Assembly: GCA_964520425.1 (NCBI GenBank) | Contig: CAZFMX010000004.1 | Coordinates: 7,526 to 71,525, forward strand | Source: an uncultured Desulfobacteraceae bacterium | Lineage (GTDB): Bacteria > Desulfobacterota > DSM-4660 > Desulfatiglandales > HGW-15 | Direction: 5' to 3' | Length of the DNA stretch: 64,000 nucleotides | Part shown: piece by piece, positions 1 to 60,131 of the stretch | Position numbering within the stretch: the stretch's first letter is position 1 | Layout of the letters: each line of letters opens with the position of its first letter | Program-made: the position numbers and the translations under genes | Notes under the pieces: generated by a model | What the model was told of the DNA's origin: nothing | The model's input: the letters and a program-made list of their open reading frames with translations, nothing else | Database searches by the model: none

Positions 1-985
1 CTTCCAGGGCGGAAAGATCAGGTGTTTGACCGATGGCCGGAATGACCTGGTCGAGTTCCATATCAAATTCACTCCCAGGTATGGGGACCGGCCTTCTTCT
101 ACCCGACGAGTCGGGCTCCCCAAGTTCCATGCGAATACACCGCAGACCAATCACCCTGTCGTCCTGGAGGAGGACTTCCTGGGGGGCTGAGAGAAAGGAG
201 ATCTTCACCCCTTCCTCCTCTGCGGCCTCGACTTCTTCCTCCCAGGCCGGCATCTCCGCGCGAGTCCTTCGGTAGATGATAGTGACTTCTTCGGCCCCTA
301 GCCGGACTGCGGAGCGGGACGCGTCGATGGCCACATTACCGCCGCCGACGATAGCCACTCTTCTTCCCACAGCCGCCTTACCCTTAAGGTTCAGTTCTCT
401 AAGAAAATCCACACCCTGTCGTACACCCTCAGCCTCATCACCGGGGATACCCATCTCAATCCCTCTATGGGCCCCAGTAGCCAGATATATGGCCTTGTAG
501 CCTTGATTCAATAGGGTTTTGACCGTCAAATTCGGGCCCAGGGGCGTGTCGGTCCTGATCTCCACACCCAGGTTGGTGATGACCTCGATCTCCCGATCCA
601 GAATGTCTCGAGGAAGACGATGCTCAGGGATGCCCACCCGCAGCATGCCGCCGGCTTTGGGCAGGGCCTCAAAAATCGTGGATAAGACCCCTTTCCGTGC
701 TAGATGATAGGCCGCGGAAAGCCCCGCAGGGCCCGAGCCGATGATAGCCACCTTCTCCTCCCTTGGAGGGAGACATTCAATCTCTATTTCCCGGGGATCA
801 AACTGGTCGGCTGCAAGGCGTTTCAGGTCCCGAATGGCTATCGGATCATCCACATCACACCGACGGCAGGCATCTTCACATCCATGGGGACAGATTCTGC
901 CGAGCACACCGGGCAGGGGGAGATCTTGCATAATGATTTTCAGGGCCTCTTTGTATTTCCCCTGTCCCACCATCTGTACATACCC
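1..985. repeat. Copy 1 of a >=985-bp perfectly identical segment shared by the two hdrA paralogs
   Basis: It is identical to 11397-12381, and the first mismatch is at 986 vs 12382. The antisense ORF-track translations 33..275, 276..500 and 519..707 are identical to 11429..11671, 11672..11896 and 11915..12103. Confidence 0.9.
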
Positions 986-1534
986 TTGCACATTCAATCC
1001 CGCGGGGCAGGCTAGACGGCAGGGGGCTTTGTTCACTTTCTGAATGGCAAAGGCCCCCGGAATGGCTTGGGCATATTTTTTATAGGTTGCTTTTCTGGTG
1101 GAAAGACCCTGGTCGTATTCATTGGGGAGTTCTACAGGGCAGACCCTCGCACAGTCGCCACAGGCCGTGCACTTTGCCTCATCAATGTAGCGAGGAATTC
1201 TGCGAAGGGAGACTTTGAAGTTCCCCTGAGCACCACTGACCTTCTCCACGTCAGCACATGTGATCAAATCTATATTCAGATGCCGGCCGACCTCGACCAG
1301 TTTAGGAGAAATGATTCACATAGCACAATCGTTGGTAGGAAAGGTCTTGTCCAGTTCACTCATGACACCGCCGATGGCGGGGGACTTCTCCACAAGTTTG
1401 ACCAGATAACCGGAATTAGCCAGATCCAGAGCAGCCTGCATCCCGGCAATTCCGCCACCGACCACCATCACCGAGCCTGAGGGTGTATCAAGTCTTTCTT
1501 CAGTCATTATGTCTTCCCTTTCCAGTTTGACCAT
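1..1534 (-). CDS. hdrA: HdrA-like FAD/Fe-S oxidoreductase with GltD/NfnB-like insertion, predicted selenocysteine-containing paralog (partial; 3' part lies left of the window)
   Basis: The minus-strand frame is open from ATG 1534 to the window edge except for TGA at 1316-1318. Motifs are [18 protein letters not shown] (FAD fold), [10 protein letters not shown]-[TGA][12 protein letters not shown], [12 protein letters not shown], then GltD-type [10 protein letters not shown]...[14 protein letters not shown] and [13 protein letters not shown]. It is colinear with the 1482-aa protein at 8464..12912. Confidence 0.85.
1316..1318 (-). other. In-frame UGA, predicted selenocysteine codon of the hdrA paralog
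   Basis: It aligns exactly with Cys67 (TGT, 12712-12714) of the paralog in the motif DCAM-C/U-(M/I)ISPK. The frame continues open for 1315 nt downstream. Confidence 0.75.
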
Positions 1535-1639
1535 TTGGTAGACTCACAAAGCGTTTGATCCGCTCCACACTTGATTTGTCATGCAAACCGCATACGCCGT
1601 GCAACGCGGAAACGGCAAGGAGCCTGATTTGTTATAAGG

Positions 1640-2518
1640 CTATGACAGGTTGGCCTCGTTCAGAATTTGAGGAAGCCTGTCTTCCCAGCCTACGGTTGAG
1701 ATCAGTACGCCGGCCATCCCCATCTCCTTTAGCTGGGTTATGATCTTTGCAGCAATAGTTATGCATTCCTGAACTTTATCAGGGGCCTTTTGAATACTTG
1801 TGATTATCTCAGAGGGAATGGAGGTCCCCTTTATGTTTCGATCAATGTATCGTGCCATTCCGGCGGATTTTAACAGGAGAACGGTAGGAATGATCGCCAC
1901 TTGGGTTGTGTCCACTCTCTTAACAAATTGTTGGAAACGACGGGTGTCAAACACTGGGTTTGTTATGATATATTCTACCCCGAGATCTATCTTCTTTTTG
2001 AGGTTATCCAACTCGATTTCCAGAAGACCTCCCGGGGTGCCGGTGTCTATGGTAGAACCCACAAAATAGGTGGGTGATCCTTTCAACTCAATGCCAGCCA
2101 GATCTTTTCCCATCTGAAGTTTCTGAAGGGTTTCGAGGAGACCCATAACGTCCAAGTCATTAACAGCTCTGGCTTGAGGATGATCCCCGAAATTGATGTC
2201 CTCCCCTGCCGTGACCACGACATTCTTAATGCCCAGTGCTGATGCGGACAGGAGGTCGGCCTGAAGGGCTAGACGATTCCTATCCCGACAACAGACCTGA
2301 AAAACCGTTTCGACTCCTGCTTCTTGCAGCACGGCGCACCCTCCCAAAGAACTCGCCTTCAGGACGGCATTCCCCATTTCAGGGACTATGAGTGCATCTA
2401 TGCGACCTTTTACTTGATTGGCACTCCTAAGAAAAGGCGAGAAGTCGATTCCTTTTGGCGGCTCAAATTCACCAAGGACAACGAAATTCCCCGATTTTAT
2501 CTTTTCCTGTAACGGCAT
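1640..2518 (-). CDS. metF: Methylenetetrahydrofolate reductase family protein (second MetF-like paralog)
   Basis: The 292-aa product is a TIM-barrel MTHFR-like sequence (QVCCRDRNRLALQADLLSASALGIKNVVVTAGE) and a paralog of 6315..7247. It sits 105 nt upstream of the Sec-hdrA start. Confidence 0.7.
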   Translation of the reverse strand: MPLQEKIKSGNFVVLGEFEPPKGIDFSPFLRSANQVKGRIDALIVPEMGNAVLKASSLGGCAVLQEAGVETVFQVCCRDRNRLALQADLLSASALGIKNVVVTAGEDINFGDHPQARAVNDLDVMGLLETLQKLQMGKDLAGIELKGSPTYFVGSTIDTGTPGGLLEIELDNLKKKIDLGVEYIITNPVFDTRRFQQFVKRVDTTQVAIIPTVLLLKSAGMARYIDRNIKGTSIPSEIITSIQKAPDKVQECITIAAKIITQLKEMGMAGVLISTVGWEDRLPQILNEANLS

Positions 2519-2723
2519 ATGCTTGACCTCCAGTCCCCTTTGACCCCATCTTCCGTATTTGGCTCGAACTGATCGGTCCGGGACGAATAATTTGAAAAAA
2601 CGATATGAACTTAAGAATCTAGACTCAACAGACGGTTAAGCAGTTTGTTCTTATGGTCAGGGTGTTCCCCAGAGAGTAGGGGATGTAGGCTTTTACTACA
2701 ATAATTCCTATTTGGCAATCCCT

Positions 2724-4211
2724 TTAGGGGCTTTTCCCATCTTCCCTTATAACCGGTAGCAATATTCTAAAAGTAGTTCCTTTATCAGGAACGCTTTCCA
2801 CGTCAATCGTACCATTATGACTTTCTACCACACCTTTTACTATGGTGAGTCCCAATCCTGTACCTGTCACATTACGAGTCTTTTTGTTTTTTATACGGTA
2901 AAACTTGTCAAAGATCTTAGGGAGTTCTTCCGGGTCAATGCCTACTCCCGTGTCACTTACTTTGATTTCCATATATTCCCCCAGGACCTGGGCATTCACT
3001 TCGACCCGACCCCCTTCAGGAGAATAATTGATGGCATTGGTGACAAGGTTATTGAGGATCTCTTCAATTCCTTTGGGATCCGCATGAACGGGCTTCATGT
3101 TCTTGCAGGAGTCAATAAGGGTAATTCCCTGCTTCTGGGCCCTGGGCTTCAACAGAGAGAGGGTATCCTTGATGAGTGATTCGATATCCGTAGGCACTCG
3201 ATGTTGTACCTGTTTTCCCTCTTCAAGCTTCGCGATGTCCAAAAGATCATTGATCAGCTCAAGGAGTTGGTCTATTTTCTTTACTCCCTTTCCTAGGAAT
3301 TCCTCCTGCTTTTCCCCAAGAGGACCGAGTAACCCCTCTAGAAGGACAGTGTTTTGTTGCCTGATGGAAATCAATGGACTTCGGAGTTCGTGGGCTACCA
3401 TATTTATAAAATCTGATTTCATCTCGTCGAGTTGTCTAAAGGCGGTGATATCCTGCAAGACCGTGACTGTCCCGACGAGCCCATCATCGGGGCCGAGGGC
3501 TGGTGCCGAAATGGCCCTCAGGACCATTTTCCCGGCGCTGATTTCCTGGGACACGAACTCATCTCTTGCAGATTCACCGGTCTGGATACCCTCAAGTGTA
3601 TTTCTCAGAGCCCTGTCATCTATAATCTGATTCACTAATACGGGATTTTCGACCTTTCCCGATATCTCCAGCAGCCTCATCAATGCGGGATTGTGAAGGA
3701 CAACTTCCAGGTTGCGGTTAGTGACCATTACACCATCAGCCATACAGTTGATTATGGTCTTCAGCCGGCTTTTTTCCAGGTCGAGATCATAGAGGTTTCT
3801 CAATTTCTCCTCTTCATATGAGTGGGCTCTCTTTTCAAGCGCCCTCTTTTCGGCAGCCCGATTGATGGTTAAGAGAAACTGATCGATCTGGAAAGGCTTG
3901 GTTATAAAGTCATAAGCGCCCTGCTTCATACAATCCACGGCGGTATCCACGGTTCCATGTCCCGTGATAATGATGACCGGGATGTCCGGATATTGAACGC
4001 GCGTTTTTTCCAGGACCTCCTCGCCACTCATGACAGGCATTTTCAGGTCGAGCAGGATAACATCTACGGTCTCTTTGTTCAGCAGATCCACAGCCTTTTG
4101 TCCGTTTTCAGCGGTCAAGACCTCATATCCCTTTCCCGTTAACACACGGCTGCATCCCTCCCTAACAACCTGCTCGTCATCTACAACCAATATCTTTGTT
4201 TTATGATCCAT
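2724..4211 (-). CDS. Hybrid response-regulator receiver / PAS / histidine kinase
   Basis: It has an N-terminal receiver (ILVVDDEQVVRE...LLDLKMP), an H-box MVAHELRSPL, and HATPase_c boxes (NAINYSPEGG, DTGVGI, GTGLGLTIVKG). Confidence 0.85.
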   Translation of the reverse strand: MDHKTKILVVDDEQVVREGCSRVLTGKGYEVLTAENGQKAVDLLNKETVDVILLDLKMPVMSGEEVLEKTRVQYPDIPVIIITGHGTVDTAVDCMKQGAYDFITKPFQIDQFLLTINRAAEKRALEKRAHSYEEEKLRNLYDLDLEKSRLKTIINCMADGVMVTNRNLEVVLHNPALMRLLEISGKVENPVLVNQIIDDRALRNTLEGIQTGESARDEFVSQEISAGKMVLRAISAPALGPDDGLVGTVTVLQDITAFRQLDEMKSDFINMVAHELRSPLISIRQQNTVLLEGLLGPLGEKQEEFLGKGVKKIDQLLELINDLLDIAKLEEGKQVQHRVPTDIESLIKDTLSLLKPRAQKQGITLIDSCKNMKPVHADPKGIEEILNNLVTNAINYSPEGGRVEVNAQVLGEYMEIKVSDTGVGIDPEELPKIFDKFYRIKNKKTRNVTGTGLGLTIVKGVVESHNGTIDVESVPDKGTTFRILLPVIREDGKSP

Positions 4212-4253
4212 GATGAATGATAGCCCTTCTCCGAATTAACCGCTCGTGCTCAA

Positions 4254-5825
4254 TCAATTATCCAATCCGACAAAAAGAGGTTCTTCCGAGGTCCTCGCCA
4301 CAAATCCCAGGGGGATCTCGATAACGAAGGTGGTCCCTCCCTCAGGAGGAGAGTCTATGGCAATGCTGCCACCGTGCAGAGAAATAATGTTCTTGGTAAT
4401 CGTCAATCCCAGACCTGTTCCCTTTCCAGGGGCCTTGGTAGTAAAGAAAAAATCAAAGATCTTTTCCCGCATGTTCTCCGGGATACCTGGACCGGTATCA
4501 GAAACGCGGATATGGAACTGATTCTTTTCAGGTTCAAACCGCGCTTTGATATCCAGACGGCCGTTACCTTCCATGGCGTCTGCGGCATTCATGAAGAGAT
4601 TGGTAAAGACCTGCTGGAGCTGGGCCATGTCACCCACCATGCTGGGCAGGTCCGAATCTATTTGTTTGGTGATGGATATATTTTGAAAAAGGGCCTGATT
4701 GACCAAGAGAACCAGTGTCTTGTCAATCAATTCAGCTAAACTGAAAGAGGATATTTTGCCCACGGACTGCCTGCTAAACTCCAGTAGATCGGATACAATC
4801 CTTTTACATCTTAATGTCTGTTGAATGATTTCGTTTGCGTCATTGAAGTATTGGGGATTATCCTTCAAATTCTCCTTGAGCAGTTCGGCGAAGATCAGGA
4901 TGCCGGACAGAGGGTTATTGATTTCATGAGCGACACCGGCGGCCATTCTGCCTATAGATGCGATTCTCTCTGATTCCACCAGTTGGAGGTGGGCATCCTC
5001 CAGGTCTTTTCTCATCTGGAGAACTTCCCTCATATCCCTAAAGACCCCGACACTGGCTGTCTCCTTGCCGTCAATAGTGATGATAGAGGCGGATAAGGTG
5101 ACCGGAATTTTCTCACCTTCCTTTGTGGTGATCGTCATGTTGGTAGGATTTAATTTCCCTGGAGGCCCGTGCCGGTCACTGCGCATCTTCTGCATGTTTT
5201 CTTTTGCCACATCTATGTCATAGAAGCTGCTTAAATGACCCATATCCGTCATCTCCCGGGCCGAGTATCCTGTCAGTGCTTCCATCCCTTGATTCCAGAT
5301 CAGGACGTTTCCTTTGGTATCAGAGACAACAATGCCGTCCACAGTACTCTGGATCATATTTTGAAAAAAGGTGTTGGATTTTCGGGCTTCTTGTTCCAGC
5401 ATAAATCTTTCCGTCACATCCCTGGATGCTTCAAGAATCTGGACCAATTCACCCTCTTTGTTACAGATGGGGGCAATGGTGACTACGTCATAACGGATTT
5501 CGCCGCTATCATCGAGATATTCGTTGTAGACACTGATGGACCTATTCTCTTTGATCTCGTCAAGGCGCTGCCTTATGTTACAGACTCGGCCAAGTTCATC
5601 ACATGGTTGGTTGAACCCATACCTCACCAAGTAACAAGGTTTGCCCCGGACATCATCATAGCTTAGGCCGAGTTCATTCAGAAAGGGTTGATTCACGGTG
5701 TCAATGGTCATATCCGTGTTGACAACCATGATTCTGTAAGGAATAGAATCTAGGATAAGTTGTGTATGGTTCTTGTCTTTTTCTCGGGAATCCGTTCCCT
5801 CTTTTCCTAATTCCATCTTTTCCAT
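4254..5825 (-). CDS. PAS-domain sensor histidine kinase
   Basis: It has PAS-like repeats, an H-box GVAHEINNPL, an N-box NLFMNAADAM, and G-boxes DTGPGI and GTGLGLTITK. Confidence 0.85.
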   Translation of the reverse strand: MEKMELGKEGTDSREKDKNHTQLILDSIPYRIMVVNTDMTIDTVNQPFLNELGLSYDDVRGKPCYLVRYGFNQPCDELGRVCNIRQRLDEIKENRSISVYNEYLDDSGEIRYDVVTIAPICNKEGELVQILEASRDVTERFMLEQEARKSNTFFQNMIQSTVDGIVVSDTKGNVLIWNQGMEALTGYSAREMTDMGHLSSFYDIDVAKENMQKMRSDRHGPPGKLNPTNMTITTKEGEKIPVTLSASIITIDGKETASVGVFRDMREVLQMRKDLEDAHLQLVESERIASIGRMAAGVAHEINNPLSGILIFAELLKENLKDNPQYFNDANEIIQQTLRCKRIVSDLLEFSRQSVGKISSFSLAELIDKTLVLLVNQALFQNISITKQIDSDLPSMVGDMAQLQQVFTNLFMNAADAMEGNGRLDIKARFEPEKNQFHIRVSDTGPGIPENMREKIFDFFFTTKAPGKGTGLGLTITKNIISLHGGSIAIDSPPEGGTTFVIEIPLGFVARTSEEPLFVGLDN

Positions 5826-5949
5826 CTGGGTTGTAACCGTTCAGCGGCTAAGCCACGAGGAGGACGTGTCGACAAATAGCCAAGGAACCTCGATTCACTA
5901 ACGGCTCGCGATGTTGAAGCTTCCTGCAGGTCTCTCTAATTCCGCCGCC

Positions 5950-6240
5950 TCACGATGTTTCACTATCCAACCGCAATATAAGTTTCTGTTCGAGATCCTT
6001 GATAATGTCCTTTAAACTAGGAGTCTCCTGGATAGGCCCTGAATTGTTCCATCCCTTGATCAGGGCCTCCTCTTTCTTTTTTCTGAATACTTCAATGTTG
6101 GAAGCCATGGTCTTCCACAGGAACAACTTCTGAAGGATATGCCGCTCCGGAGCAGTCAAATCGATCTCCGTATCATATGTTTTTCCGTCTTTGGTGGTAA
6201 TGATCACAGTGAAAAAGCAATAAAGAATCAAGTGTGACAA
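5950..6240 (-). CDS. Hypothetical small protein
   Basis: This is a 96-aa ORF with no recognisable motif. It lies downstream of a terminator-like hairpin after metF, so expression is uncertain. Confidence 0.3.
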   Translation of the reverse strand: MSHLILYCFFTVIITTKDGKTYDTEIDLTAPERHILQKLFLWKTMASNIEVFRKKKEEALIKGWNNSGPIQETPSLKDIIKDLEQKLILRLDSETS

Positions 6241-6285
6241 TAAGTTGGTGCAATATCTTAAGGGACAAGTGCTGTAGAACTCAAG

Positions 6286-6305
6286 AAAAAAGCCTTCTCA
6301 GAAGG
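6286..6305 (-). terminator. Putative intrinsic terminator after metF
   Basis: On the minus strand a CCUUC-UGA-GAAGG hairpin is followed by C and six U residues, about 10 nt after the metF stop. The stem is short (5 bp). Confidence 0.4.
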
Positions 6306-6314
6306 ATGGCGTCA

Positions 6315-7247
6315 TCAAACCTTGGGTCTTGGAAGGAGACCGGCTCTCTCTGCGATCTCCGGGACTTTGTGTTCCCATTCGATGGCCATGAGATGAACAC
6401 CGGCTACACCTTCCATCTCTTTAAATTCTTCAATCTGCTCGAGTGCGAATTTGATGCCCTCTTCAGCTACTTTCCCTTTTCCCGCTCCTCTCAGTCTATT
6501 GATCAGAGATTCGGGCACATCCATGCCGGGGACCGCTTTGGCCATATACTGGGCCATACCAAGGCTTTTCATGGGGGTGACTCCGGCCAAGATATAGCAC
6601 TTCTCATGAAGACCCATATCGACCACCTTTTTCATAAAATCCCTAAAGATATCCATATTGTAAATGCATTGGGTCTGAACGAAATCCGCCCCTGAGGCGA
6701 TCTTCTTTGCGAGTCGGTGAACCCGGAATTCAATGGGATCTGCAAATGGGTTGGAGGCAGCCCCTATAAAGAGCCTGGGCGAGACATCAAGCTGCTCCTC
6801 ATTCAGGAATTTGCCCTCATCCCGCATCTTTTTGGCTAGGGAGATAAGTTGCATGGAGTCTAAGTCAAAGACGTTCTTGGCCTGGGGGTGGTTCCCAAAA
6901 CGCTGGTGATCGCCGGAAAGACAGAGCATGTTTCGGATGCCTAAAGTATAGGCGCCCAGGATATCACTCTGCATGGCCAAACGGTTCCGATCACGGCAGA
7001 CCATTTGATAATTGGGCTCAATTCCTTCTTGTATCAATATCGTGGAAGCGGCCCAGCTGGACATTCTAACCACCGCTGTCTGGTTATCGGTGATATTGAC
7101 CGCATCTACCATCCCTTTCAGGTGGGCAGCCTTTTCCTTGAGATGGTCCGTATTCGCGCCCTTTGGGGGACCACATTCGCCGGTAAAGGTAAAGTGCCCG
7201 GCTTTGAGGACCTTTTCAAGATTGCTTCCAGATTTCAGATCGTTCAT
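6315..7247 (-). CDS. metF: Methylenetetrahydrofolate reductase, acetogen-type MetF
   Basis: The 310-aa product has MTHFR motifs (MVCRDRNRLAMQSDILGAYTLGIRNMLCLSGD). Its start overlaps the metV stop by 4 nt, and it is the last gene of the hdrCBA-mvhD-metVF string. Confidence 0.85.
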   Translation of the reverse strand: MNDLKSGSNLEKVLKAGHFTFTGECGPPKGANTDHLKEKAAHLKGMVDAVNITDNQTAVVRMSSWAASTILIQEGIEPNYQMVCRDRNRLAMQSDILGAYTLGIRNMLCLSGDHQRFGNHPQAKNVFDLDSMQLISLAKKMRDEGKFLNEEQLDVSPRLFIGAASNPFADPIEFRVHRLAKKIASGADFVQTQCIYNMDIFRDFMKKVVDMGLHEKCYILAGVTPMKSLGMAQYMAKAVPGMDVPESLINRLRGAGKGKVAEEGIKFALEQIEEFKEMEGVAGVHLMAIEWEHKVPEIAERAGLLPRPKV

Positions 7248-7912
7248 TCTACCAGTCCCTCCTTAGCACTCTTTCGGGGCCCGCCGTCCCTTGAGGTCTG
7301 CCAATCCTTGGCTGGTGTTATTCGGAGTAGATCCTCCAGACGGCCCTGTTCCATTTTCTTTCTCACGATCATGTCCCAGACACAGTCAACTTCCCTTGAG
7401 ATCTCACACTTTCCCTTGGCCGAACCGCCACAAGGCCCGTTGAGGAGGTTTTTAGAACAACGAGCAACGGGGCATAGACCGCCGGTCAGGTGGAGGATGC
7501 AGTCTCCGCACATAAGACAGCGCTCAGTAAACAAACCCGGTCCCTCAACTACACCGATGAAAGTGGTGTTGAGTCCGGGCAGAATGATCTTCTCCGGCCA
7601 TTTCTCGGAGGTGAACTGGACCCCGGCCCCGCAGGCGATGGAGAGAACGGCGTCGGCCCACTCGATCTGTTCTTTCGCGGAATCGAAGAATTCGTGTTCG
7701 CACTGCCGCTCGATTCCCCCATTCTTGATGTCGATCTCTATACCTTCCTGTTTGGCCTTCATCCTCAACATGGAGGCCAAGATCTCTGCTTCCTTATTCC
7801 CCCCCTCGTGGCAAATGGCCACGCAGGTGTTGCATCCGAAGATCAAGACCTTCCTGTATTCTTTGATCATGTCCCAGATGACTTCGAAGGATTTTTGTTT
7901 CCCGACAATCAT
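7244..7912 (-). CDS. metV: MetV (Cys-rich MTHFR small subunit, MTHFR C-terminal-like domain)
   Basis: It carries the Cys clusters CNTCVAICHEGG and CLMCGDCILHLTGGLCPVARCSKNLLNGPCGG. It sits between mvhD and metF. Confidence 0.8.
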   Translation of the reverse strand: MIVGKQKSFEVIWDMIKEYRKVLIFGCNTCVAICHEGGNKEAEILASMLRMKAKQEGIEIDIKNGGIERQCEHEFFDSAKEQIEWADAVLSIACGAGVQFTSEKWPEKIILPGLNTTFIGVVEGPGLFTERCLMCGDCILHLTGGLCPVARCSKNLLNGPCGGSAKGKCEISREVDCVWDMIVRKKMEQGRLEDLLRITPAKDWQTSRDGGPRKSAKEGLVE

Positions 7913-7918
7913 CTTAAT

Positions 7919-8443
7919 CTACTCCTTTCCGGAGTACTTGGATTCCGTTCCAGAATATCTGGATTCCGCAAGCCGAATGGGGGAGGGACCGAGCTTTTTG
8001 ATCTTCTCTGTAAACTCGGTACAGATTTCCGCCCATCTGGGTCCCATGGCTGCGGAAAGGTTATACATCTCAAGCCGTTCCGGATCAATATCAACCTTAA
8101 TTAATAGATTCTTTAGATACTCAATCCTCTTTCTGGCGTTTGTATTTCCTTCCAGGAAATGACACTGTCCGGGCAGTCACCCGGCAGCAAATACGCCGTC
8201 CATGCCTTTCTCGAACGCGCGAAGAACATAGATGTGGTCCAGCTTGCCTGTGCAAGGGAGCCTGATGATCTTTACGTTTGTAGGATAGGAGAGCCGCATG
8301 ACCCCAGAGAGGTCTGCGGCCGCGAAAGCGCAATAGTGGCAGGCAAAGGCCAGGATGTTGGGCGACCAGTCCGAAGGGATGTCGTGCGGTTTCTCTACGG
8401 AGGAGGTATCCTCCTGTGCCACGGTTGAAGCTTCTTCTGTCAT
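7919..8443 (-). CDS. mvhD: MvhD-like [2Fe-2S] protein, predicted selenocysteine-containing (174 aa with read-through)
   Basis: The ORF-track stub 8177..8443 ends ...DGVFAAG-TGA. The same frame continues LPGQCHFLEGNTNARKRIEYLKNLL...FTEKIKKLGP to TAG 7919-7921, matching the MvhD signature GC(U)xxGxCH(Y/F)xxGN. Confidence 0.8.
8144..8160 (-). promoter_or_regulatory. Candidate bacterial SECIS hairpin for mvhD
   Basis: On the mRNA a 6-bp stem AUUUCC/GGAAAU with loop UGGAA starts 16 nt after the UGA. It was found by eye only. Confidence 0.4.
8177..8179 (-). other. In-frame UGA, predicted selenocysteine codon of mvhD
   Basis: It sits where MvhD/VhuD family proteins have the first Cys of the G-C-x-x-G-x-C-H motif. 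Confidence 0.75.
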
Positions 8444-8463
8444 GTTCTCTCTATCTTTCCTCC

Positions 8464-11400
8464 CTACATGCTCGTTCCTTCGGCCAGTGTATCTATCATG
8501 GCCAATATTTGCCCGTCTTTGAAGTTATTGACCTGAAATGCCTTGGCCGGACAGACACCCGCACAGATTCCACATCCCATGCATTTGACCTCGTTGTGGC
8601 TTACCTTGCCCTCTTCGTCGATATAGGGTGAATCAAAGGGACAAACTCTGAAGCATGTGAGACAGGACATGCAGATATCCCGGTTGTGCTTGGAAATAAT
8701 CCCGGATACGGCCAGTTTGTCCTGAGACAGGATGACACCGGCGCGACCGGCAGCGGCTAGGGCCTGGGAAATAGTTTCATCCAGATTCTTGGGGGCATGG
8801 GCCAGTCCGCACAGGAAGATACCCTCGGACGGAAAGTCTACGGGACGAAGTTTGACGTGGGCCTCCAGCAGGTAGCCCTCCGGATTGCGCGTCAGTTTGT
8901 AAATCTTGGCGACCTCTTCTGTCGTTGGGTGCGGTCTGAGGCCCGTGGAAAGCACCAGCCAGTCCGCTTCAAACTCGACTTCTCGGCCGAGCATATCATC
9001 GAAGGTCTTGACCCGAAGATTGTCTTCTGAAACCTCCACCTGAGGTTTCCTTTCCGGGATATAGTTTACAAAGATCACGCCCAAATCGCGCGCCTTAAAG
9101 TAGTAGTCTTCCCTGAGCCCGTATGTCCTGATGTCACGATAGAGGATGATGACCTGTGTATCAGGCGAGTGTTCTTTGATGGCGATAGCGTTCTTTATAG
9201 CGTCCTGACAGCAAATACGGGAGCAGTAATTATCAGGCTCCTCTCTGGAACCCACACACTGGATCATGACATATTTTTCGCCCGCTTGAACGCCATGATT
9301 GGCTGCAAGCCTCTTCTCCAGCATTCGCTGGGTGATCACCCTGTCGTTCTCCCCGTAAAGGTATTCCTTGGACTCATATTCGGTACCGCCAATGGCCACG
9401 ATAATAGCCCCATGCTCGAACGATGTTCCGTCAGTCAGGGTTGTCTTGAAGTTGCCCACAAAACCATCAGTGGATTTGACCTCAAGCCCCGTGTGAATGG
9501 TGATGCGCGGGTGGGCCTGGATCTCTTCGATTTTGGTCTTTAAAAAACCCTGCACATCGCTTTTATCCAGTGTATGAAAAAGATTGCGAGCCAGACCGCC
9601 CAGGTCAATCTCCTTTTCCACCAGGTGGACATCAAAACCCTGATCACCCAGTGAAAGGGCCGCGGTGATGCCGGCTACTCCGCCGCCAATGACCATGGCC
9701 CCGGGAATCACGCCCACCGAGTCGGTGGTGACCGGCTCCAGCAGCCTGACCTTGGCTATATTCATTTTAACAATGCTGATGGCCTTTTCTGTGGCATCTT
9801 CATTCTGTCCCATGTGACACCAGGAGCATTGCTCGCGGATATCGGCAAGCTCGAACAAATACTTGTTCAGTCCGGCTTCACGGATAGTGTCCTGGAACAG
9901 GGGCTCGTGGGTTCTTGGTGTGCAAGAAGCCACCAAGACCCTGTTCAAATTTTTCTCCTTGACGATCTCCTTTATTCGCTCTTGTGTGTTCTGTGCGCAG
10001 GCGTACATTGTATTTTCAGCATGTATAACGCCCTGTTCACCTTTCACAGATTCGACCACCTTTTCCACATCTACGGTCTGGCTGATATTGATTCCGCAGT
10101 GACAGACGAATACCCCGATTCTGGGCTCTTCTTTGGTGATGTCTGTTTCCGGCGGGAGTTCTCTGGTCACCGTCTCTGTGCCCCTGGCCTCACCCAGCAA
10201 AGCCATAGCCTCTCCCGCTACAGCGCTTCCCTGCATCACGGTCTCGGGTATGTCCTTGGGGGATTGGAATATACCCGTGACAAACACACCATCTTGAGAG
10301 GTATTAACCGGCTGAAATTGGGTTGTTCTGGGAAAGCGGTGGTCATTGAGCGCAATATCAAAGGTCTTGGCCAAATCATCCACGTCCGAGTGGGGCTGAA
10401 AGCCGATGGAGAGGACGACCATGTCAAAGGTTTCGTCCACCAGGGTTCCATCCTCTTTAGCATAGCGCAGCACCAGGTTACCTGTTCCGGGTTCTTCCCT
10501 TATTGCCGAGATCATGGCCCGTTGATACCGGACGCTGTAGTCGTTCTTGGCACGATCCACATACTTGTCAAAGTCCTTTCCAAAGGCTCTCAGCTCCATA
10601 AAGAAAATGGTGGGATGAATTCGGCTATCATGTTCGGTGGCAATAATGGCCTGCTTGGTGGCATACATACAACAGACCGAAGAACACCAGGGATTGGCAT
10701 TGTGTCGGTCCCGGGATCCTACACATTGAATCCACGCGATTTTTTCAGGATGCTTTCCGTCGCTGGGGCGCTTGACCGTTCCCTGGTACGGGCCGGACGC
10801 GGAAAGGATGCGCTCAAACTGAATGGACGACACCACGTTGGGCCAACGGCCAAACCCCAGTTCCTGTCGGACGCCGGCGTCATAGCGGGCGAGACCTGGG
10901 GACAGAATAATGGACCCCACATTGATTTCCATGGTCTCGGGTTGCTGCGCGTGGGTCTCCAGTGTTACCGCTCCAGGAAGACAGGCCTCCACGCACTGAA
11001 AACACTCGCAGCAATATGAACAATTCAAACACCGATGGGCCTCTGTCTGACCGGTCTCTATATCCAGACCCAGCTCCACTTCCTTGAAGTTTCCTTCTCG
11101 CTTTTCAACAGGCAACTCCGGCATTTTGGCTCGATCCTTCTTGTGTTGGCCTTTTGGAATAGGACGGTAGACCGGATCCTCTTTGGTGATGGGTTCCCGT
11201 CCCTCGGCCATGTCCCGTCCGTCCAAATAACGGACAATGGATTCGGCTGCCTCCCGGCCTGAGGCAACGGCACCAATGGCCACCCATGGACCGGTCTGCA
11301 CATCTCCACCCGCAAAAACACCGTCGCAGTTGGTGGCATAGGTGATGGAATCCGTTTCAACCGTACCCCACCGAGAGAATTCCAGACCGGATATCTCTTC

Positions 11401-12912
11401 CAGGGCGGAAAGATCAGGTGTTTGACCGATGGCCGGAATGACCTGGTCGAGTTCCATATCAAATTCACTCCCAGGTATGGGGACCGGCCTTCTTCTACCC
11501 GACGAGTCGGGCTCCCCAAGTTCCATGCGAATACACCGCAGACCAATCACCCTGTCGTCCTGGAGGAGGACTTCCTGGGGGGCTGAGAGAAAGGAGATCT
11601 TCACCCCTTCCTCCTCTGCGGCCTCGACTTCTTCCTCCCAGGCCGGCATCTCCGCGCGAGTCCTTCGGTAGATGATAGTGACTTCTTCGGCCCCTAGCCG
11701 GACTGCGGAGCGGGACGCGTCGATGGCCACATTACCGCCGCCGACGATAGCCACTCTTCTTCCCACAGCCGCCTTACCCTTAAGGTTCAGTTCTCTAAGA
11801 AAATCCACACCCTGTCGTACACCCTCAGCCTCATCACCGGGGATACCCATCTCAATCCCTCTATGGGCCCCAGTAGCCAGATATATGGCCTTGTAGCCTT
11901 GATTCAATAGGGTTTTGACCGTCAAATTCGGGCCCAGGGGCGTGTCGGTCCTGATCTCCACACCCAGGTTGGTGATGACCTCGATCTCCCGATCCAGAAT
12001 GTCTCGAGGAAGACGATGCTCAGGGATGCCCACCCGCAGCATGCCGCCGGCTTTGGGCAGGGCCTCAAAAATCGTGGATAAGACCCCTTTCCGTGCTAGA
12101 TGATAGGCCGCGGAAAGCCCCGCAGGGCCCGAGCCGATGATAGCCACCTTCTCCTCCCTTGGAGGGAGACATTCAATCTCTATTTCCCGGGGATCAAACT
12201 GGTCGGCTGCAAGGCGTTTCAGGTCCCGAATGGCTATCGGATCATCCACATCACACCGACGGCAGGCATCTTCACATCCATGGGGACAGATTCTGCCGAG
12301 CACACCGGGCAGGGGGAGATCTTGCATAATGATTTTCAGGGCCTCTTTGTATTTCCCCTGTCCCACCATCTGTACATACCCCTGTACATTCAATCCCGCG
12401 GGGCAGGCCAAACGGCAGGGGGCTTTGTCCATCTTTCGGATGGCATAGGCGCTCGGAATGGCTTGGGCATATTCTTTGTAGGTTGCTCTTCTGGTGGAAA
12501 GACCTTGCTCGTATTCATTGGGGAGTTCTACAGGGCAGACCCTCGCACAATCGCCACAGGCCGTACACTTTGCCTCATCAATGTAACGAGGATTCTTGCG
12601 GATGGTGACTCTGAAATTCCCTTTGGGACCCTCAACCTTCTCCACTTCTGCGCAGGTGATCAGGTCTATATTGAGATGCCGGCCGACCTCCACCATCTTG
12701 GGTGAGATCATACACATGGCACAGTCGCCAGTGGGAAAGGTCTTATCCAACATGGCCATGGTCCCGCCTATGCTTGAATCTTTCTGGACTATATGTACCT
12801 TGAAGCCGGCTTCAGCAAGGTCGAACGCGGACTGCATGCCACCCACACCGCCGCCTACGATCAGGACCGATCCTTTTACTCTATTACCATTTGAGGAGGC
12901 ACTATCACTCAT
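8464..12912 (-). CDS. hdrA: Giant HdrA-like flavoprotein: HdrA module + inserted GltD/NfnB-like NAD(P)H module + second HdrA module + ferredoxin domains (1482 aa)
   Basis: Motifs in order are VLIVGGGVGGMQ; DCAMCMISPKM; GltD-type [22 protein letters not shown]; [13 protein letters not shown] and [15 protein letters not shown]; CVGSRD...CSSVCCMYATKQA; a second MVIGGGVAGITAAL and CVGSREEPDNYCSRICCQDA; and the C-terminal CMSCLTCFRVCP/CMGCGICAGVCP. Confidence 0.9.
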   Translation of the reverse strand: MSDSASSNGNRVKGSVLIVGGGVGGMQSAFDLAEAGFKVHIVQKDSSIGGTMAMLDKTFPTGDCAMCMISPKMVEVGRHLNIDLITCAEVEKVEGPKGNFRVTIRKNPRYIDEAKCTACGDCARVCPVELPNEYEQGLSTRRATYKEYAQAIPSAYAIRKMDKAPCRLACPAGLNVQGYVQMVGQGKYKEALKIIMQDLPLPGVLGRICPHGCEDACRRCDVDDPIAIRDLKRLAADQFDPREIEIECLPPREEKVAIIGSGPAGLSAAYHLARKGVLSTIFEALPKAGGMLRVGIPEHRLPRDILDREIEVITNLGVEIRTDTPLGPNLTVKTLLNQGYKAIYLATGAHRGIEMGIPGDEAEGVRQGVDFLRELNLKGKAAVGRRVAIVGGGNVAIDASRSAVRLGAEEVTIIYRRTRAEMPAWEEEVEAAEEEGVKISFLSAPQEVLLQDDRVIGLRCIRMELGEPDSSGRRRPVPIPGSEFDMELDQVIPAIGQTPDLSALEEISGLEFSRWGTVETDSITYATNCDGVFAGGDVQTGPWVAIGAVASGREAAESIVRYLDGRDMAEGREPITKEDPVYRPIPKGQHKKDRAKMPELPVEKREGNFKEVELGLDIETGQTEAHRCLNCSYCCECFQCVEACLPGAVTLETHAQQPETMEINVGSIILSPGLARYDAGVRQELGFGRWPNVVSSIQFERILSASGPYQGTVKRPSDGKHPEKIAWIQCVGSRDRHNANPWCSSVCCMYATKQAIIATEHDSRIHPTIFFMELRAFGKDFDKYVDRAKNDYSVRYQRAMISAIREEPGTGNLVLRYAKEDGTLVDETFDMVVLSIGFQPHSDVDDLAKTFDIALNDHRFPRTTQFQPVNTSQDGVFVTGIFQSPKDIPETVMQGSAVAGEAMALLGEARGTETVTRELPPETDITKEEPRIGVFVCHCGINISQTVDVEKVVESVKGEQGVIHAENTMYACAQNTQERIKEIVKEKNLNRVLVASCTPRTHEPLFQDTIREAGLNKYLFELADIREQCSWCHMGQNEDATEKAISIVKMNIAKVRLLEPVTTDSVGVIPGAMVIGGGVAGITAALSLGDQGFDVHLVEKEIDLGGLARNLFHTLDKSDVQGFLKTKIEEIQAHPRITIHTGLEVKSTDGFVGNFKTTLTDGTSFEHGAIIVAIGGTEYESKEYLYGENDRVITQRMLEKRLAANHGVQAGEKYVMIQCVGSREEPDNYCSRICCQDAIKNAIAIKEHSPDTQVIILYRDIRTYGLREDYYFKARDLGVIFVNYIPERKPQVEVSEDNLRVKTFDDMLGREVEFEADWLVLSTGLRPHPTTEEVAKIYKLTRNPEGYLLEAHVKLRPVDFPSEGIFLCGLAHAPKNLDETISQALAAAGRAGVILSQDKLAVSGIISKHNRDICMSCLTCFRVCPFDSPYIDEEGKVSHNEVKCMGCGICAGVCPAKAFQVNNFKDGQILAMIDTLAEGTSM
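11397..12381. repeat. Copy 2 of the >=985-bp perfectly identical segment (inside hdrA, GltD-like insertion)
   Basis: See 1..985. It covers about aa 178-506 of the 1482-aa protein. Confidence 0.9.
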
Positions 12913-13784
12913 ATCAAGTTCAACTCCTTCAAGAGGCCGATTGCATCCACAAAATGCCTGTCGATTTGCAGCTCTTCAGGGGATTTGTCCATGGCCACTC
13001 CAATAAGCTCGGTAATGAAGTAGACAGGCATGCTCTGGCCAATGTCATATTTTTGCTTCATCTGTTCCTGGTATGCATCGAGGTTGAGCTGGCACATTGG
13101 GCAGGTAGTGACAAAACAGTTGGCTCCTCTCGCAATGGCGTCCTTAAAAATCTTCGACATGAGCAGGAGCGCGGTATCGGTGTCGTTAACGGTCGCGGAT
13201 GCCCCACAGCAGTCGGTTTTGTAGCTCCAGTCCAAGGGCTTGGCACCGAGGGTTTTGAGAACGATCTCCATCCCCTGTGGATTTTCTACATCGTCGGGCA
13301 CGGGCACATCATATGGGAACCTGGTTTGAAGACATCCGTAGTAACATGCGGGTTCCAGACCCTCGAGTTGCTTGACCGCCTTTTCGGCAAGTTCGCCGGA
13401 CTCGGCCTTCGGTATCAATACCTCAAGAATACTCATAATCCTAATGTTGCTCTTTACTTTTTTGGACAACTCCGCGTTGATTTCGTCCCTTAGTCTATTG
13501 TTAGACGCAAGTCTGTGTTGTGCGACCAGCATCCGGCTATAGCAGGCCGAGCAGGGGATCACCAACTCAGAGAGCCCACAGTCGTCCGCAATACCCAGGT
13601 TGCGTGCGGGCATGGCAACCGACAGGAAGTCGTCGGTCTTGCTGGCAGATGTGGCACCACAGCAATTCCAGTCTTCGAGCTCGTTCAGGTTGATTCCCAT
13701 CTCCCCTAGCACCAACTTGGTCTGTGTGTCATAGAGCTGACTCGATGCGTGTAATGTGCATCCAGGGTAATAGGCAATTTCCAT
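12909..13784 (-). CDS. hdrB: Heterodisulfide reductase subunit B-like (CCG-domain protein)
   Basis: It has two CCG-type motifs (WNCCGATSA; DCCGASATV...CPMCQLNLD). Its stop overlaps the hdrA start by 4 nt. Confidence 0.85.
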   Translation of the reverse strand: MEIAYYPGCTLHASSQLYDTQTKLVLGEMGINLNELEDWNCCGATSASKTDDFLSVAMPARNLGIADDCGLSELVIPCSACYSRMLVAQHRLASNNRLRDEINAELSKKVKSNIRIMSILEVLIPKAESGELAEKAVKQLEGLEPACYYGCLQTRFPYDVPVPDDVENPQGMEIVLKTLGAKPLDWSYKTDCCGASATVNDTDTALLLMSKIFKDAIARGANCFVTTCPMCQLNLDAYQEQMKQKYDIGQSMPVYFITELIGVAMDKSPEELQIDRHFVDAIGLLKELNLI

Positions 13785-14425
13785 TATGTCCCCCTGCTCA
13801 TGTCAGACTCTGTCAGCGGCCCGTTTTTTTTTGCCTTCTTGAGAAGGCGTTTGAGATCTGAAAGGTGTTTGATCTTTTGGATCCCGAAGTGCATGCGTTT
13901 TTTCTTGGTCATACGCAGGCCGAGTTTCGCCTGGAGCATGGTCTCTTTGTATATCTCTTTGAACTTGAAGCGCATGAGGTTGCGGAAGGTGTCCTTCATT
14001 TCATAGAGGCCCATAAATTCGATTTCATTGAGCCTTCCCAAGTGGTTGGCCGCGGTACAGAAGGATTTATGGAAGGCTGCGACTTTTGGAAGGAGTGGAT
14101 CCAGATGCTCCTCTTTGGACATATGTTTGAGGGTCTCGGTGATCTTTGCGGTTTGTATTTCGTTTGGGCAGCGGGTGCCGCATGTATAGCACGACACACA
14201 CTTCCAGACCAGCTTGTTACTGAGGGCCTGTTCCCGGTCGCCGAGCAGTATCATTCGAATCAAACGATCAGGCGTGACATAGCCGGTCTCTTCTCCCACA
14301 GGACATCCTGCAGCACATCGTCGGCACTGATAACAGGCGGTAATGTTCTGCTCTGACCGCGCCATTACCTCATGCACCAGTGCTTGCTTGCTTTCGTGTT
14401 CAAATTTTAAGGCAGGAAGTGCCAT
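13784..14425 (-). CDS. hdrC: Heterodisulfide reductase subunit C-like (2x[4Fe-4S])
   Basis: It has the motifs CYQCRRCAAGCP and CVSCYTCGTRCP. It overlaps the hdrB start by 1 nt. Confidence 0.85.
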   Translation of the reverse strand: MALPALKFEHESKQALVHEVMARSEQNITACYQCRRCAAGCPVGEETGYVTPDRLIRMILLGDREQALSNKLVWKCVSCYTCGTRCPNEIQTAKITETLKHMSKEEHLDPLLPKVAAFHKSFCTAANHLGRLNEIEFMGLYEMKDTFRNLMRFKFKEIYKETMLQAKLGLRMTKKKRMHFGIQKIKHLSDLKRLLKKAKKNGPLTESDMSRGT

Positions 14426-14512
14426 TTCAGTACTCCTTGGTCACACTTTAAGGTTCTCCAAATCCGATTTACAAAATCTTTCACGATCGCCCCTTTTCTT
14501 ACATTTCGATCC

Positions 14513-19250: not shown

Positions 19251-19415
19251 ATCTTTTCGTATGTTCCGAGTCTCCCGGCCTGGTCATTTCAAACAGTTAT
19301 GGACGGGTGATGCCTCCCCCCTCCGCTGTTCCCCTCGACTTCGCTCGGGGCCAGGGGTCCCCCATTCCATATCTGTTTGAAATAAGGTGGCCTCCCGACA
19401 GTCACCCCGAAAAGA
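19251..19415. repeat. Family-A structured intergenic element, divergent copy A3
   Basis: It shares the blocks GTTCCGAGNCTCCCG, CCCCCTCCGCTGTTC, CCAGGGNTCCCCCA, CAGTCAC and GAAAAG with 21111-21300 and 59890-60070. Its stems differ in sequence but stay complementary. Confidence 0.7.
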
Positions 19416-21073: not shown

Positions 21074-21110
21074 TCCAGATGCATTTGGAATGGAGTATTG
21101 CTCGAGGGAC

Positions 21111-21300
21111 ACAGGCTATTCTTTCGTTCCGAGGCTCCCGTGCTGGTCTTTTCTGAGACTTATCTGCGAGGGAAACTTGCCCCCTCCGCTGTTCTTCCCG
21201 CCTCTTCGAGGCGGAAAGCCAGGGCTTCCCCCACAGATAAGTCTCGAAAAGACGGCGCTCTCCCACCAGTCACTTCAGAAAAGCCTCTGTCACTCAAGCC
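21111..21300. repeat. Family-A structured intergenic element, copy A1 (about 190 nt, long imperfect hairpin)
   Basis: It is about 85-90% identical by eye to 59890-60070. It has nested inverted repeats: an outer ACAGGCTATTCT/AGAAAAGCCTCTGT stem, an inner GTCTTTTCTGAGACTTATCTG/CAGATAAGTCTCGAAAAGAC stem, and an apical CTTCCCGCCTC-TTC-GAGGCGGAAAG hairpin. Confidence 0.8.
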
Positions 21301-32794: not shown

Positions 32795-32963
32795 AAACGG
32801 CCTTTTTGGCCAATCTTCCGCCGTCGCTACAGCTATGGCGGGACAGGCTGCGTCACCCTTTAGATTGTAATCCTCGAAATACTCTATTGTATTGATGCCC
32901 GTCCCGATGTCAATCGGGAGGGTTTCAATCTTCGCCTTCCTTGACCTTGACCAAAAATTCTCG
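32795..32963. repeat. Family-B structured element, copy B1 (just upstream of the sugar-transferase start)
   Basis: It is homologous to 35733-35866. The outer stem is 32863-32874/32919-32930, enclosing hairpins at 32878-32893 and 32903-32918, followed by CTTCGCCTTCCTTGACCTTGACC. Confidence 0.7.
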
Positions 32964-35732: not shown

Positions 35733-35866
35733 AAACGCCCCTTTTGCCCAATCTCGGCGTTAGGCTCAAATTCTAATCCTCGAAATACTACGAGTATTCC
35801 TGGCTATCCCGATGAAAATCGGGAGGGTTAGAATTCTCGCCTTCCTTGACCTTGAACAAAATCGAG
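35733..35866. repeat. Family-B structured element, copy B2 (upstream of the ExeA-like gene start)
   Basis: The outer stem is 35769-35780/35824-35835, enclosing hairpins at 35784-35798 and 35808-35823. The stems covary with B1. Confidence 0.7.
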
Positions 35867-36071: not shown

Positions 36072-37454
36072 CTACGGAAAGATCGGGTGAAATTCCGTCC
36101 TCCGGTTCAGCCCTTTGATCGCAGGATCTTTATTGGATACGATCGGTTTTGTGAGTCCGAAGCCTTTGATCGCGAGCTGGTTCGCCGGGACGCCCCTATC
36201 AATAAGATAGGACTGCACGGCTTTCGCCCGTAATATGGAAAGCTCTATGTTATACTCAGGGGTGAATATATCACACGTGTGCCCATGGAGTTCCATCTTC
36301 AGGTCAGGATTGAGCTTCAAAACCTCCGCGATCTCATCCAGCATGGGATAATACTCCGGCTTGATATCATATTTGTCCAGATCGAACTGCACTCTTCCAA
36401 GAATCCAGCACCCGTTTTCGTCGATTTTGGCTCCCTTAGGTGTCTGTAGGCATTTGTCGCAAGCATCACCCACACCGTCACAGTCTGTATCAGCCTGATC
36501 CATGTTGGCCTTCTCCGGGCAGTTGTCACACAGATCCCCAACACCGTCGCGGTCGGAGTCAATCTGATCCGGATTGGCTGTTTCAGCACAATTATCACAC
36601 TTGTCACCAATTCCGTCTCCATCACCATCTACCTGGTCAGGGTTGGGGACATCCGGGCAGTTGTCACATATATCGCCAAATCCGTCACCGTCACGGTCCG
36701 GCACTTTGGCCAAAAAGACTCGTGTCACAAAATCGGCCATCTTTTGAGGGGATGCTATCTCATCGGCATTGGACAAGGAGCCGCACCCGTTGATCGAGAC
36801 AATCTCCTTATACAGGCTCTTGCCCCTGGCGCTGTCTCCCACCTGCACAGTGTATATGCAGATCCTGTCTTCAAAAAGCTTCTTCATCTTCTCTACGGCA
36901 AATAAAGGGTTACCCAGGCCTTCGCCGTCACCGATCAGAATAACAGCCGTATTCCCTTGAAGCTCCTTCAGGTCCTCACAGGCCGCTTCAAGAGCGGTTC
37001 CCGGATGAGTCTCGCCGCCGGGAGATTTGAGATTTGCTATAGCCGCCTCAAAGCTCTCGGGAGTGTATTTTCTCATACCATAAACAAGGTCTGTCTCTTT
37101 TTTGGATTCCCAACCCGGGCCGAAGATCCTGAGACCTGCTATCAGTTGAATGTCGGGCATCGTCAGATCCATACGCCGGATCATTTCTTTGGCAATGGCC
37201 AGCTTTTGATTTTCTGAATAGGGGAGAGTCATGGAGTGGGACATGTCAAGAATGACCATGAAATTCTCCACCTTTTGAACGTACTTGCAGTTGTCGAGTA
37301 GGGGATTGAGATCAACCGGTACAAATCTCGCGCCTATATCCGCATAAGGGGCCATATCTCGGGTCGAATTTTCTGAGGCACAGGCCATCAGCAGTGTGGC
37401 GAGCAATAGAGTGAAGAATGTCTTGGCGTGATAACGATTCATCATATTGTGCAA
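36072..37454 (-). CDS. Lipoprotein with vWA domain, thrombospondin type-3 Ca-binding repeats and OmpA C-terminal peptidoglycan-binding domain
   Basis: It has a lipobox LLMAC and a MIDAS motif VILDMSHSM. It also has repeats DRDGDGFGDICDNCPDVPNPDQVDGDGDGIGDKCDNC... and an OmpA_C domain (LHGHTCDIFTPEYNIELSILRAKAV...NRRTEF). Confidence 0.85.
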   Translation of the reverse strand: MHNMMNRYHAKTFFTLLLATLLMACASENSTRDMAPYADIGARFVPVDLNPLLDNCKYVQKVENFMVILDMSHSMTLPYSENQKLAIAKEMIRRMDLTMPDIQLIAGLRIFGPGWESKKETDLVYGMRKYTPESFEAAIANLKSPGGETHPGTALEAACEDLKELQGNTAVILIGDGEGLGNPLFAVEKMKKLFEDRICIYTVQVGDSARGKSLYKEIVSINGCGSLSNADEIASPQKMADFVTRVFLAKVPDRDGDGFGDICDNCPDVPNPDQVDGDGDGIGDKCDNCAETANPDQIDSDRDGVGDLCDNCPEKANMDQADTDCDGVGDACDKCLQTPKGAKIDENGCWILGRVQFDLDKYDIKPEYYPMLDEIAEVLKLNPDLKMELHGHTCDIFTPEYNIELSILRAKAVQSYLIDRGVPANQLAIKGFGLTKPIVSNKDPAIKGLNRRTEFHPIFP

Positions 37455-37490
37455 CCTCCAAAGTCTGGGTGTTCTAGAGTGATGTTCAAT

Positions 37491-38243: not shown

Positions 38244-38259
38244 ATAGCCCTCGATTACT

Positions 38260-60070: not shown

Positions 60071-60131
60071 CCTTTGAGCCCCCTTCGAGGGGGCTGCTTG
60101 AGGCTTTCCGCTATGCGGAAAGAGTACTCAC

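Follow-up and report, generated by a model that had tools for sequence, protein, structure and literature searches.

The DNA analysed here (the window) is a 64,000-nt stretch of contig CAZFMX010000004.1 from an uncultured Desulfobacteraceae bacterium, hereafter W. It carries two hdrA genes, both on the minus strand in direct orientation and 11.4 kb apart, one with a selenocysteine (Sec) and one with a cysteine (Cys) at the corresponding site. The first of them, copy 1 (hdrA1), begins at an ATG at position 1534 (alternative 1507). Its 5′ part (986..1534) holds an FAD-binding N domain, an in-frame TGA and a predicted selenocysteine insertion sequence (SECIS) hairpin, while positions 1..985 encode amino acids 184-511, a GltD/NfnB-like NAD(P)H/FAD module, from where the gene runs on past the left edge of the window. 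By its domain layout, copy 1 is an HdrL-type gene, that is, an HdrA with a GltD/NfnB-like insert in the ferredoxin domain. The second, copy 2 (hdrA2), is an intact open reading frame of 1482 amino acids (12912..8464). Pfam places Fer4_20 (PF14691) at its residues 151-240 and Pyr_redox_2 (PF07992) at 255-552, both inside an HdrA frame that further matches FAD_binding_2/FAD_oxidored and the Fer4 families of the HdrA core and carries the C(A/S)M(C/U) motif.

Read along the minus strand, the order of genes is hdrC (4Fe-4S; 14425-13784), hdrB (CCG domains; 13784-12909), copy 2, mvhD (8443-7916), metV (7912-7244), metF (7247-6315), two sensor kinases, metF2 (2518-1640) and copy 1, with the genes downstream of copy 2 assigned by Pfam. 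The kinases are a PAS histidine kinase (5825-4254) and a hybrid kinase/receiver (4211-2724), and hdrC and hdrB precede copy 2 within one operon-like array. Two related contigs, L044 and L164, keep the order of the genes between the two hdrA copies (1640..8443), and in these and a third relative, L165, hdrA1 is again followed by mvhD (FlpD), metV and metF.

The two hdrA genes share a tract of perfect identity. Base-by-base comparison of 1-985 with 11397-12381 gave 985 matches in 985 positions, with the earliest difference at 986 (T) against 12382 (C), exactly as the initial annotation had read it. That annotation had also noted that the tract passes the window edge, and we could follow it further using P0245, the NCBI gene product of copy 1 (1181 amino acids, cut by the end of its 71,896-bp contig), which was reached by querying for homologs of the C part of the gene in a relative. 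P0245 equals copy 1 over all 415 window-encoded residues and supplies 743 further residues past the window edge. A leftward extension of the comparison, suggested earlier as a check, thus became possible at the protein level: P0245 and copy 2 are the same through residue 662, and their earliest difference is at codon 663 (ATG vs ATC), whose third base is position 10924. An independent Logan contig (L001; k=31, run SRR14802572) matches the window from 1343 to 10954 with 0 mismatches and ends on the 30-mer 10925-10954. Because of this protein match and this contig end, we place the full tract in copy 2 at 10925-12381 (minus strand, 1457 bp, amino acids 178-662), of which 985 nt were checked at base level and the remaining 472 nt are deduced from protein identity. 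It encodes the end of the first ferredoxin motif region, Fer4_20, Pyr_redox_2 and a CxxCxxCxxxC motif, so that it does cover the GltD/NfnB-like insert, as had been proposed.

This tract is by far the longest common k-mer run in the window. The two hdrA genes have one second common run, a 41-mer (1113-1153 = 12509-12549), and no other shared k-mer of 31 or longer. Beyond 986, ungapped identity per 50 nt lies at 72-96% to about position 1350, then at about 50-60%, and reaches chance level past about 1500. The 5′ parts had been put at about 80% identity, a figure that in fact averages over two zones, one of about 59% over the first ~220 nt of the genes and one of about 86% over the next 309 nt. 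The two ends of the tract differ in kind: the left end (10925) coincides with the end of all homology, and the tract probably stops so abruptly there because no further homology was available, whereas the 986/12382 end lies inside homologous sequence.

Neither chance nor purifying selection at the protein level accounts for this identity. In the adjacent homologous 299 nt (986-1284), 44 sites differ (85.3% identity), and at that rate 985 consecutive matches have a computed probability of ~1e-65. Synonymous sites give the same answer, with 0 of ~247 differing in the tract against a proportion of 0.37 (pS) in the adjacent 98 codons (probability ~1e-49). Both explanations are ruled out on these grounds. 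No record of a protein exactly equal to that of copy 2 was found on look-up, a tract-derived 34-mer had no match in JGI metagenome contigs, and the copy-1 fragment used as a homolog query returned fragments only, at no more than 81% identity.

To see where each portion of copy 2 belongs, 160 related loci were compared in three segments: the N part, the part corresponding to the tract (T) and the C part. They include two orthogroups. Members of the Sec/HdrL orthogroup (A1, containing hdrA1) are long and mostly carry Sec (CAM*IISP); relative to copy 2, their T is 65-93% and their C part 44-50% identical. Members of the Cys orthogroup (A2, containing hdrA2; CAMCMISP) show the reverse, with a C part 62-87% identical to that of copy 2 and a T that is absent or merely 40-55% identical. 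The closest A2 relatives, P0246 (88%) and P0248-P0257 (80-81%), are 1012-1028 amino acids long and lack Fer4_20. Among the 120 closest Cys-type clusters nearly all are full-length at ~1000-1080 amino acids, the rest are shorter, and Fer4_20 is listed in none. In neighbor-joining trees, all 100 bootstraps place the tract within the Sec/HdrL orthogroup, and all 100 likewise place the copy-2 C part within the Cys orthogroup.

Copy 2 is therefore a mosaic of four parts. Its N terminus (12691..12912, amino acids 1-74) is native Cys-type sequence, judged by part-wise identities (residues 19-79 are 82% identical to the Cys group vs 66% to the Sec group) and by its collinearity with an orthologous contig described below. 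There follows a diverged copy-1-like segment (12382..12690, amino acids 75-177) that is 85.8% identical to copy 1 at the nucleotide level; its residues 80-177 are 83% identical to copy 1 vs 45% to the Cys group. The third part is the tract identical to copy 1, and the fourth (8464..10924, amino acids 663-1482) is again native, a Cys-type HdrA core with the second FAD domain and ferredoxin domains, which matches hdrA2 of L044 at 87% identity and the Sec paralog at 48%. These comparisons indicate that copy 1 and copy 2 are old, dissimilar paralogs and that copy 2 was ancestrally an HdrA of ~1013 amino acids without the insert. The description of the two genes as paralogous conversion partners thus stands, but they were not of like architecture. 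A recent duplication of the whole gene was considered and is ruled out by the C parts, which over 820 amino acids are only 48% identical. Elsewhere, many Desulfobacterales genomes have a short hdrA, often with Sec, adjoining a long HdrL-type gene (L022, L037, L056, L059, L068, L069 and L070), so that partners for module exchange are commonly adjacent.

The ancestral state can be read from a sister lineage. L166, a JGI contig, carries hdrC-hdrB-hdrA2-mvhD with an hdrA2 of 1013 amino acids at the syntenic place. Positions 15852-12668 of W align to 1-3185 of L166 at 89.5%, and positions 10925-7923 align to 3521-6519 at 84.8%. In between, 335 nt of L166 (3186-3520) have no counterpart in W, which holds ~1.75 kb of Sec-group sequence there instead. 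At the downstream junction (10925) the joined sequences share almost no homology. L044, a contig of a metagenome-assembled genome, is 88-91% identical to W at the nucleotide level, has the same gene order, and is 95% identical to L166; its hdrA2 is represented on the contig by the C part alone. Its nucleotides 1-29, just upstream of the junction, read FDQQEEEIEL, which is of the L166 type, unlike W and unlike hdrA1 of L044. Comparison of orthologous loci, which had been proposed earlier, thus found a short hdrA2 without the tract at the syntenic position. Together with the bootstraps for both parts, this supports the original proposal of recent gene conversion between direct-oriented paralogs.

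A perfect repeat in a metagenomic assembly calls for caution, and the initial annotation had named an assembly chimera or collapse as the alternative. Were copy 2 a chimera, the true gene would be a short HdrA, as in L166, or one with another insert, to which the copy-1 tract had been misjoined; a perfect repeat in a metagenome bin is well known as a mark of misjoining, and the closest relatives do have the short form. Against this, both mosaic junctions are present in independent assemblies made with a different program, the upstream junction in two runs. Two Logan contigs, L082 (to 15784) and L083 (to 14314), from runs SRR14802572 and SRR14802574, respectively, both begin at 12520, precisely at the 30-mer 12520-12549 that forms part of the 41-mer common to the two genes, and both run unbroken from hdrC/hdrB via the native N terminus over the upstream junction to that point. 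L001 passes from the native C part over 10925 into 30 nt of the tract. Moreover, the upstream junction has an identical stretch of only 17 nt, too short to mislead a k=31 graph, and the 86% segment is found in copy 2 alone, so that it could not have been borrowed from copy 1. As both junctions recur in independent assemblies and the 86% segment is exclusive to copy 2, we consider a chimeric join very improbable, leaving collapse, weighed further below, as the artefact still to be reckoned with. The other end of L001 (SRR14802572_28649), at 1343, precedes the Sec codon by 25 nt and falls on a 30-mer (1343-1372) that is unique in the window; another sequence in the sample must share it, for example a further hdrA/hdrL paralog or a second strain.

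The mosaic does not seem to have formed all at once. Its copy-1-like sequence comes in two tiers, one 86% and one 100% identical to copy 1, and at least two transfer events are therefore required where a single conversion had been proposed. The older segment (12382-12690) differs from copy 1 with a synonymous divergence (dS) of ~0.5 and a nonsynonymous divergence (dN) of ~0.09; the resulting dN/dS of ~0.18, like the intact reading frame, indicates that the mosaic gene is under purifying selection. It branches outside the hdrA1 genes of W, L044, L164 and L165, to which it is 83.5-85.8% identical, compared with 89-95% among these four, while the 5′ part of copy 1 is 95-97% identical to hdrA1 of L044. 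We also tested whether one event with patchy mismatch repair upstream could have produced both tiers, the 86% zone then being heteroduplex repaired in both directions. Ragged ends are frequent in conversion tracts between diverged sequences, yet such repair predicts the native Cys-group base in copy 2 at practically all of the 44 sites that differ within 12382-12690. Copy 2 has it at 18 and copy 1 at 14, and at 40 of these 44 sites the base in copy 1 is also that of L044 hdrA1, which means that the changes occurred on the branch of copy 2. On this site pattern patchy repair was rejected, and we give it hardly any credence.

The direction of the recent event can be judged from orthologous distances. 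The background at this locus, taken from mvhD, metV, metF, the kinases and metF2, is 88-95%. The tract lies within it, at 88-93% identity to hdrA1 of L044, L164 and L165, and its dS against L044 (0.36-0.39) equals that of neighboring genes (0.30-0.44). A donor from the copy-2 lineage would have left it at ~84%, the level of the adjacent older segment (83.5-85.8%), and copy 1 is thus the likely donor. Judging from these distances, the recent transfer most likely ran from copy 1 into copy 2. It also appears to have been non-reciprocal, as copy 1 is typical of its orthogroup over its known 1181 amino acids and the tract is at a normal orthologous distance.

Both transfers end downstream of the Sec/Cys codon and leave it untouched in each copy. 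Copy 1 has an in-frame TGA (1318-1316) in CAM*IISP, and copy 2 has a Cys TGT (12714-12712) in CAMCMISP, in agreement with the earlier observation that conversion stopped short of this codon. A TGA in CAM*[I/V]ISP was found in 67 distinct sequences from related loci, mostly orthologs, whereas the other orthogroup has Cys there. The predicted SECIS hairpin of copy 1, CTGGTCGAGGTCGGCCGG at 1300-1283, forms a 7-bp stem by folding and lies 16 nt past the UGA. Its 18 nt are invariant in 67 of 67 sequences, wobble positions included, bar one loop base, while flanking wobble positions have 2-4 states. This pattern of conservation places the hairpin under RNA-level constraint, although the pairing itself is predicted, since invariance leaves no covariation. 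No Rfam match to a SECIS was obtained in an E-value scan of 1-14500 or in a gathering-threshold scan of the whole window. Copy 2 has ATGGTG where the 5′ arm of the SECIS has CTGGTC and retains the loop and 3′ arm. The older upstream junction therefore lies inside the predicted SECIS. It falls within 12668-12690, in GAGGTCGGCCGGCATCT, which is common to copy 2 and the SECIS 3′ half of copy 1.

These observations, namely the identity, a mosaic copy 2, trees that conflict between its parts, a short ortholog in the sister lineage and two junctions recurring in independent assemblies, are in our view best explained by old paralogs, an older module transfer to copy 2 and then a recent gene conversion from copy 1, and we hold this history to be likely. 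In a first, older step, ~1.75 kb of HdrL-type sequence (amino acids 75-662) would have taken the place of 335 nt native to copy 2, with the upstream crossover in a nucleotide-conserved stretch and a downstream join made almost without homology. Copy 2 would thereby have become an HdrL-type protein of 1482 amino acids in which the Cys site and the C-terminal core were still those of the recipient. In a second, recent step, homologous recombination with copy 1, 11.4 kb away, would have overwritten 10925-12381 (1457 bp) and left the donor unchanged, that is, gene conversion, presumably RecA-dependent. The converted tract would have run downstream to the very end of homology and stopped upstream at 12381/985, inside homologous sequence. 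The outcome would be a Sec enzyme and a Cys enzyme with the same NAD(P)H-binding modules and different catalytic N termini and cores. As to mechanism, direction of the second step, order and number of events, and function, this is the account that we find to fit the sequences best.

Several points weigh against it. The short hdrA2 of L044 is deduced from 29 nt and from L166 at 95% identity. P0245 belongs to the assembly that also supplied the window, and an assembler threading short reads through a repeat could have duplicated one consensus, in which case the true identity could be ~98-99%. Under such a collapse both mosaic copies would be real and differ at scattered sites, one repeat consensus having been written twice, and the knife edge at 986/12382 would mark the point where divergence exceeded bubble popping. 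Consistent with collapse, the NCBI contig appears to be of metagenome type and ends inside copy 1, contigs assembled independently at k=31 from the same runs stop at the repeat, and the first mismatches past the edge are sparse (986, 989, 1013 and 1015). The copies would nonetheless still be near-identical over 1.46 kb while the neighboring 309 nt are 14% diverged, and protein and frame are intact in both; a recent conversion would still be needed, and only the estimate of its age would change. We regard collapse as unlikely.

The other points concern donors. The first ~480 nt of the tract are somewhat less like hdrA1 of the relatives (87.8-90%) than the rest (90-93%), and part of the tract could, by this measure, have moved in the opposite direction. 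Conversion between repeats can go either way, and a copy 2 segment might have entered copy 1, or several events might have gone both ways; with the tract at background distance and dS, as set out above, and not near ~84%, an opposite or mixed direction seems distinctly unlikely to us. As for the older event, the copy-2 C part opens with ~400 codons (9726-10925) in which dS against L044 reaches 1.1-1.2, while the other genes of the locus give 0.3-0.58, and L044 is here nearer to P0247 than to W. This suggests a further exchange, beside the transferred module, with a more remote lineage. Since, in addition, the older segment is an outgroup to four hdrA1 lineages, the donor of the first step may have been not the resident copy 1 but a more distant lineage. 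The first transfer may even have come with ~3 kb from a distant lineage that was already of the long form, which we mention as a lead only.

Other features of the window deserve brief mention. A TGA lies in frame at 8179-8177, within GVFAAG*LPGQCH, in the mvhD gene that directly follows the Cys hdrA2, and the frame stays open for 87 further codons after it. From its sequence, this MvhD is probably a selenoprotein, though its HdrA partner uses Cys. The mvhD genes of L044, L164 and L166 carry the identical truncated gene call of 88 amino acids. An intergenic element occurs in three copies of 90-200 nt (19253-19340, 21100-21300 and 59880-60080), two of which are 87% identical across 201 nt and have a 44-mer in common; it matched no Rfam family. 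Three tandem units of 72-nt period, 65-71% identical, occupy 37813-38074, within open reading frames that overlap on both strands (37428-38111 plus, 37491-38297 minus). Finally, a 68-nt direct repeat (82% identity) lies at 32889-32956 and 35794-35861, 2.9 kb apart, each copy just past the upstream (start) end of a minus-strand gene.

HdrL, a heterodisulfide reductase/glutamate-synthase-like fusion, was first described in Desulfobacterium autotrophicum HRM2, where each Hdr group has a Sec and a non-Sec paralog (Strittmatter et al. 2009, PMC2702500). By Pfam and sequence comparison, both genes examined here share its architecture, an HdrA core with an inserted Fer4_20 and Pyr_redox_2 NAD(P)H module. 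Further likenesses are the mvhD downstream of each gene (for copy 1, in relatives) and the presence of Sec and Cys paralogs within one genome. That report covers the family and its paralogs and not exchange between them, and we found no paper on exchange (gene conversion) between hdrA paralogs. In contrast, one HdrL-type gene here appears to have arisen from a short HdrA by module transfer from the other. The loci also differ in their linkage, being joined to metV-metF (and hdrCB) rather than to dsr or fdh genes.

Conversion between paralogs at separate chromosomal sites is familiar in bacteria, for example from tufA/tufB of Salmonella and from rRNA operons. These cases and ours are alike in their non-reciprocal homogenization, their diverged flanks and the conflict between tract and flank trees. 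There, whole genes of like architecture are kept near-identical, whereas the partners here are 48% identical outside the tract; and unlike in tufA/tufB, the tract is a domain-sized module foreign to the recipient lineage, with one end at the end of homology. Acetogens such as Moorella thermoacetica possess a MetFV-HdrABC-MvhD methylene-tetrahydrofolate reductase complex, and the same gene set, as assigned by Pfam, is found here in one array (hdrC-hdrB-hdrA-mvhD-metV-metF). Our set differs in the NfnB-like insert of its HdrA and in being duplicated, with a second hdrA-mvhD-metV-metF downstream in relatives. Sec/Cys isoenzyme pairs of anaerobes are likewise known, among them the selenium-dependent and selenium-free hydrogenases and Hdr subunits of Methanococcus, where, as here, one genome encodes a UGA/SECIS version and a Cys version of one redox subunit. 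The versions described here, however, are not mutual duplicates but belong to distinct orthogroups that share one module by recombination. Bacterial paralog conversion, HdrL and Sec/Cys Hdr paralogs are therefore all known already; what is instructive is the outcome, a short HdrA turned into an HdrL-type protein and then re-homogenized.

Flavin-based electron-bifurcating enzymes are built from interchangeable modules, the movement of which is usually inferred from deep phylogenies only. At this locus a module move has been caught at close range, with a sister lineage at roughly 85-90% nucleotide identity across the locus and both junctions readable at nucleotide resolution, one of them in the predicted SECIS region. 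It offers a concrete case of domain gain by recombination between paralogs, and of a Sec/Cys enzyme pair sharing one module. It also carries a warning for annotation, because short-read assemblies break here and the two genes are indistinguishable over a third of their length. As the initial annotation had suggested, a direct repeat of this kind, now 1.46 kb, would be expected to make the 11.4-kb block of C1-metabolism genes prone to being deleted or amplified. A more tentative and, for the present, rather doubtful extension is that the shared module is kept identical by recurrent conversion, so that a selenium-dependent and a selenium-independent form of one NAD(P)H-linked Hdr-MvhD-MetFV reductase would draw on a common donor module, and that this forms part of a wider passage from HdrA to HdrL. 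If so, tracts that moved the UGA/SECIS or the Cys codon would be selected against, hence the stops just downstream of the codon, in one case within the predicted SECIS, and conversion between paralogs would be a route from short HdrA to HdrL in Desulfobacterota.

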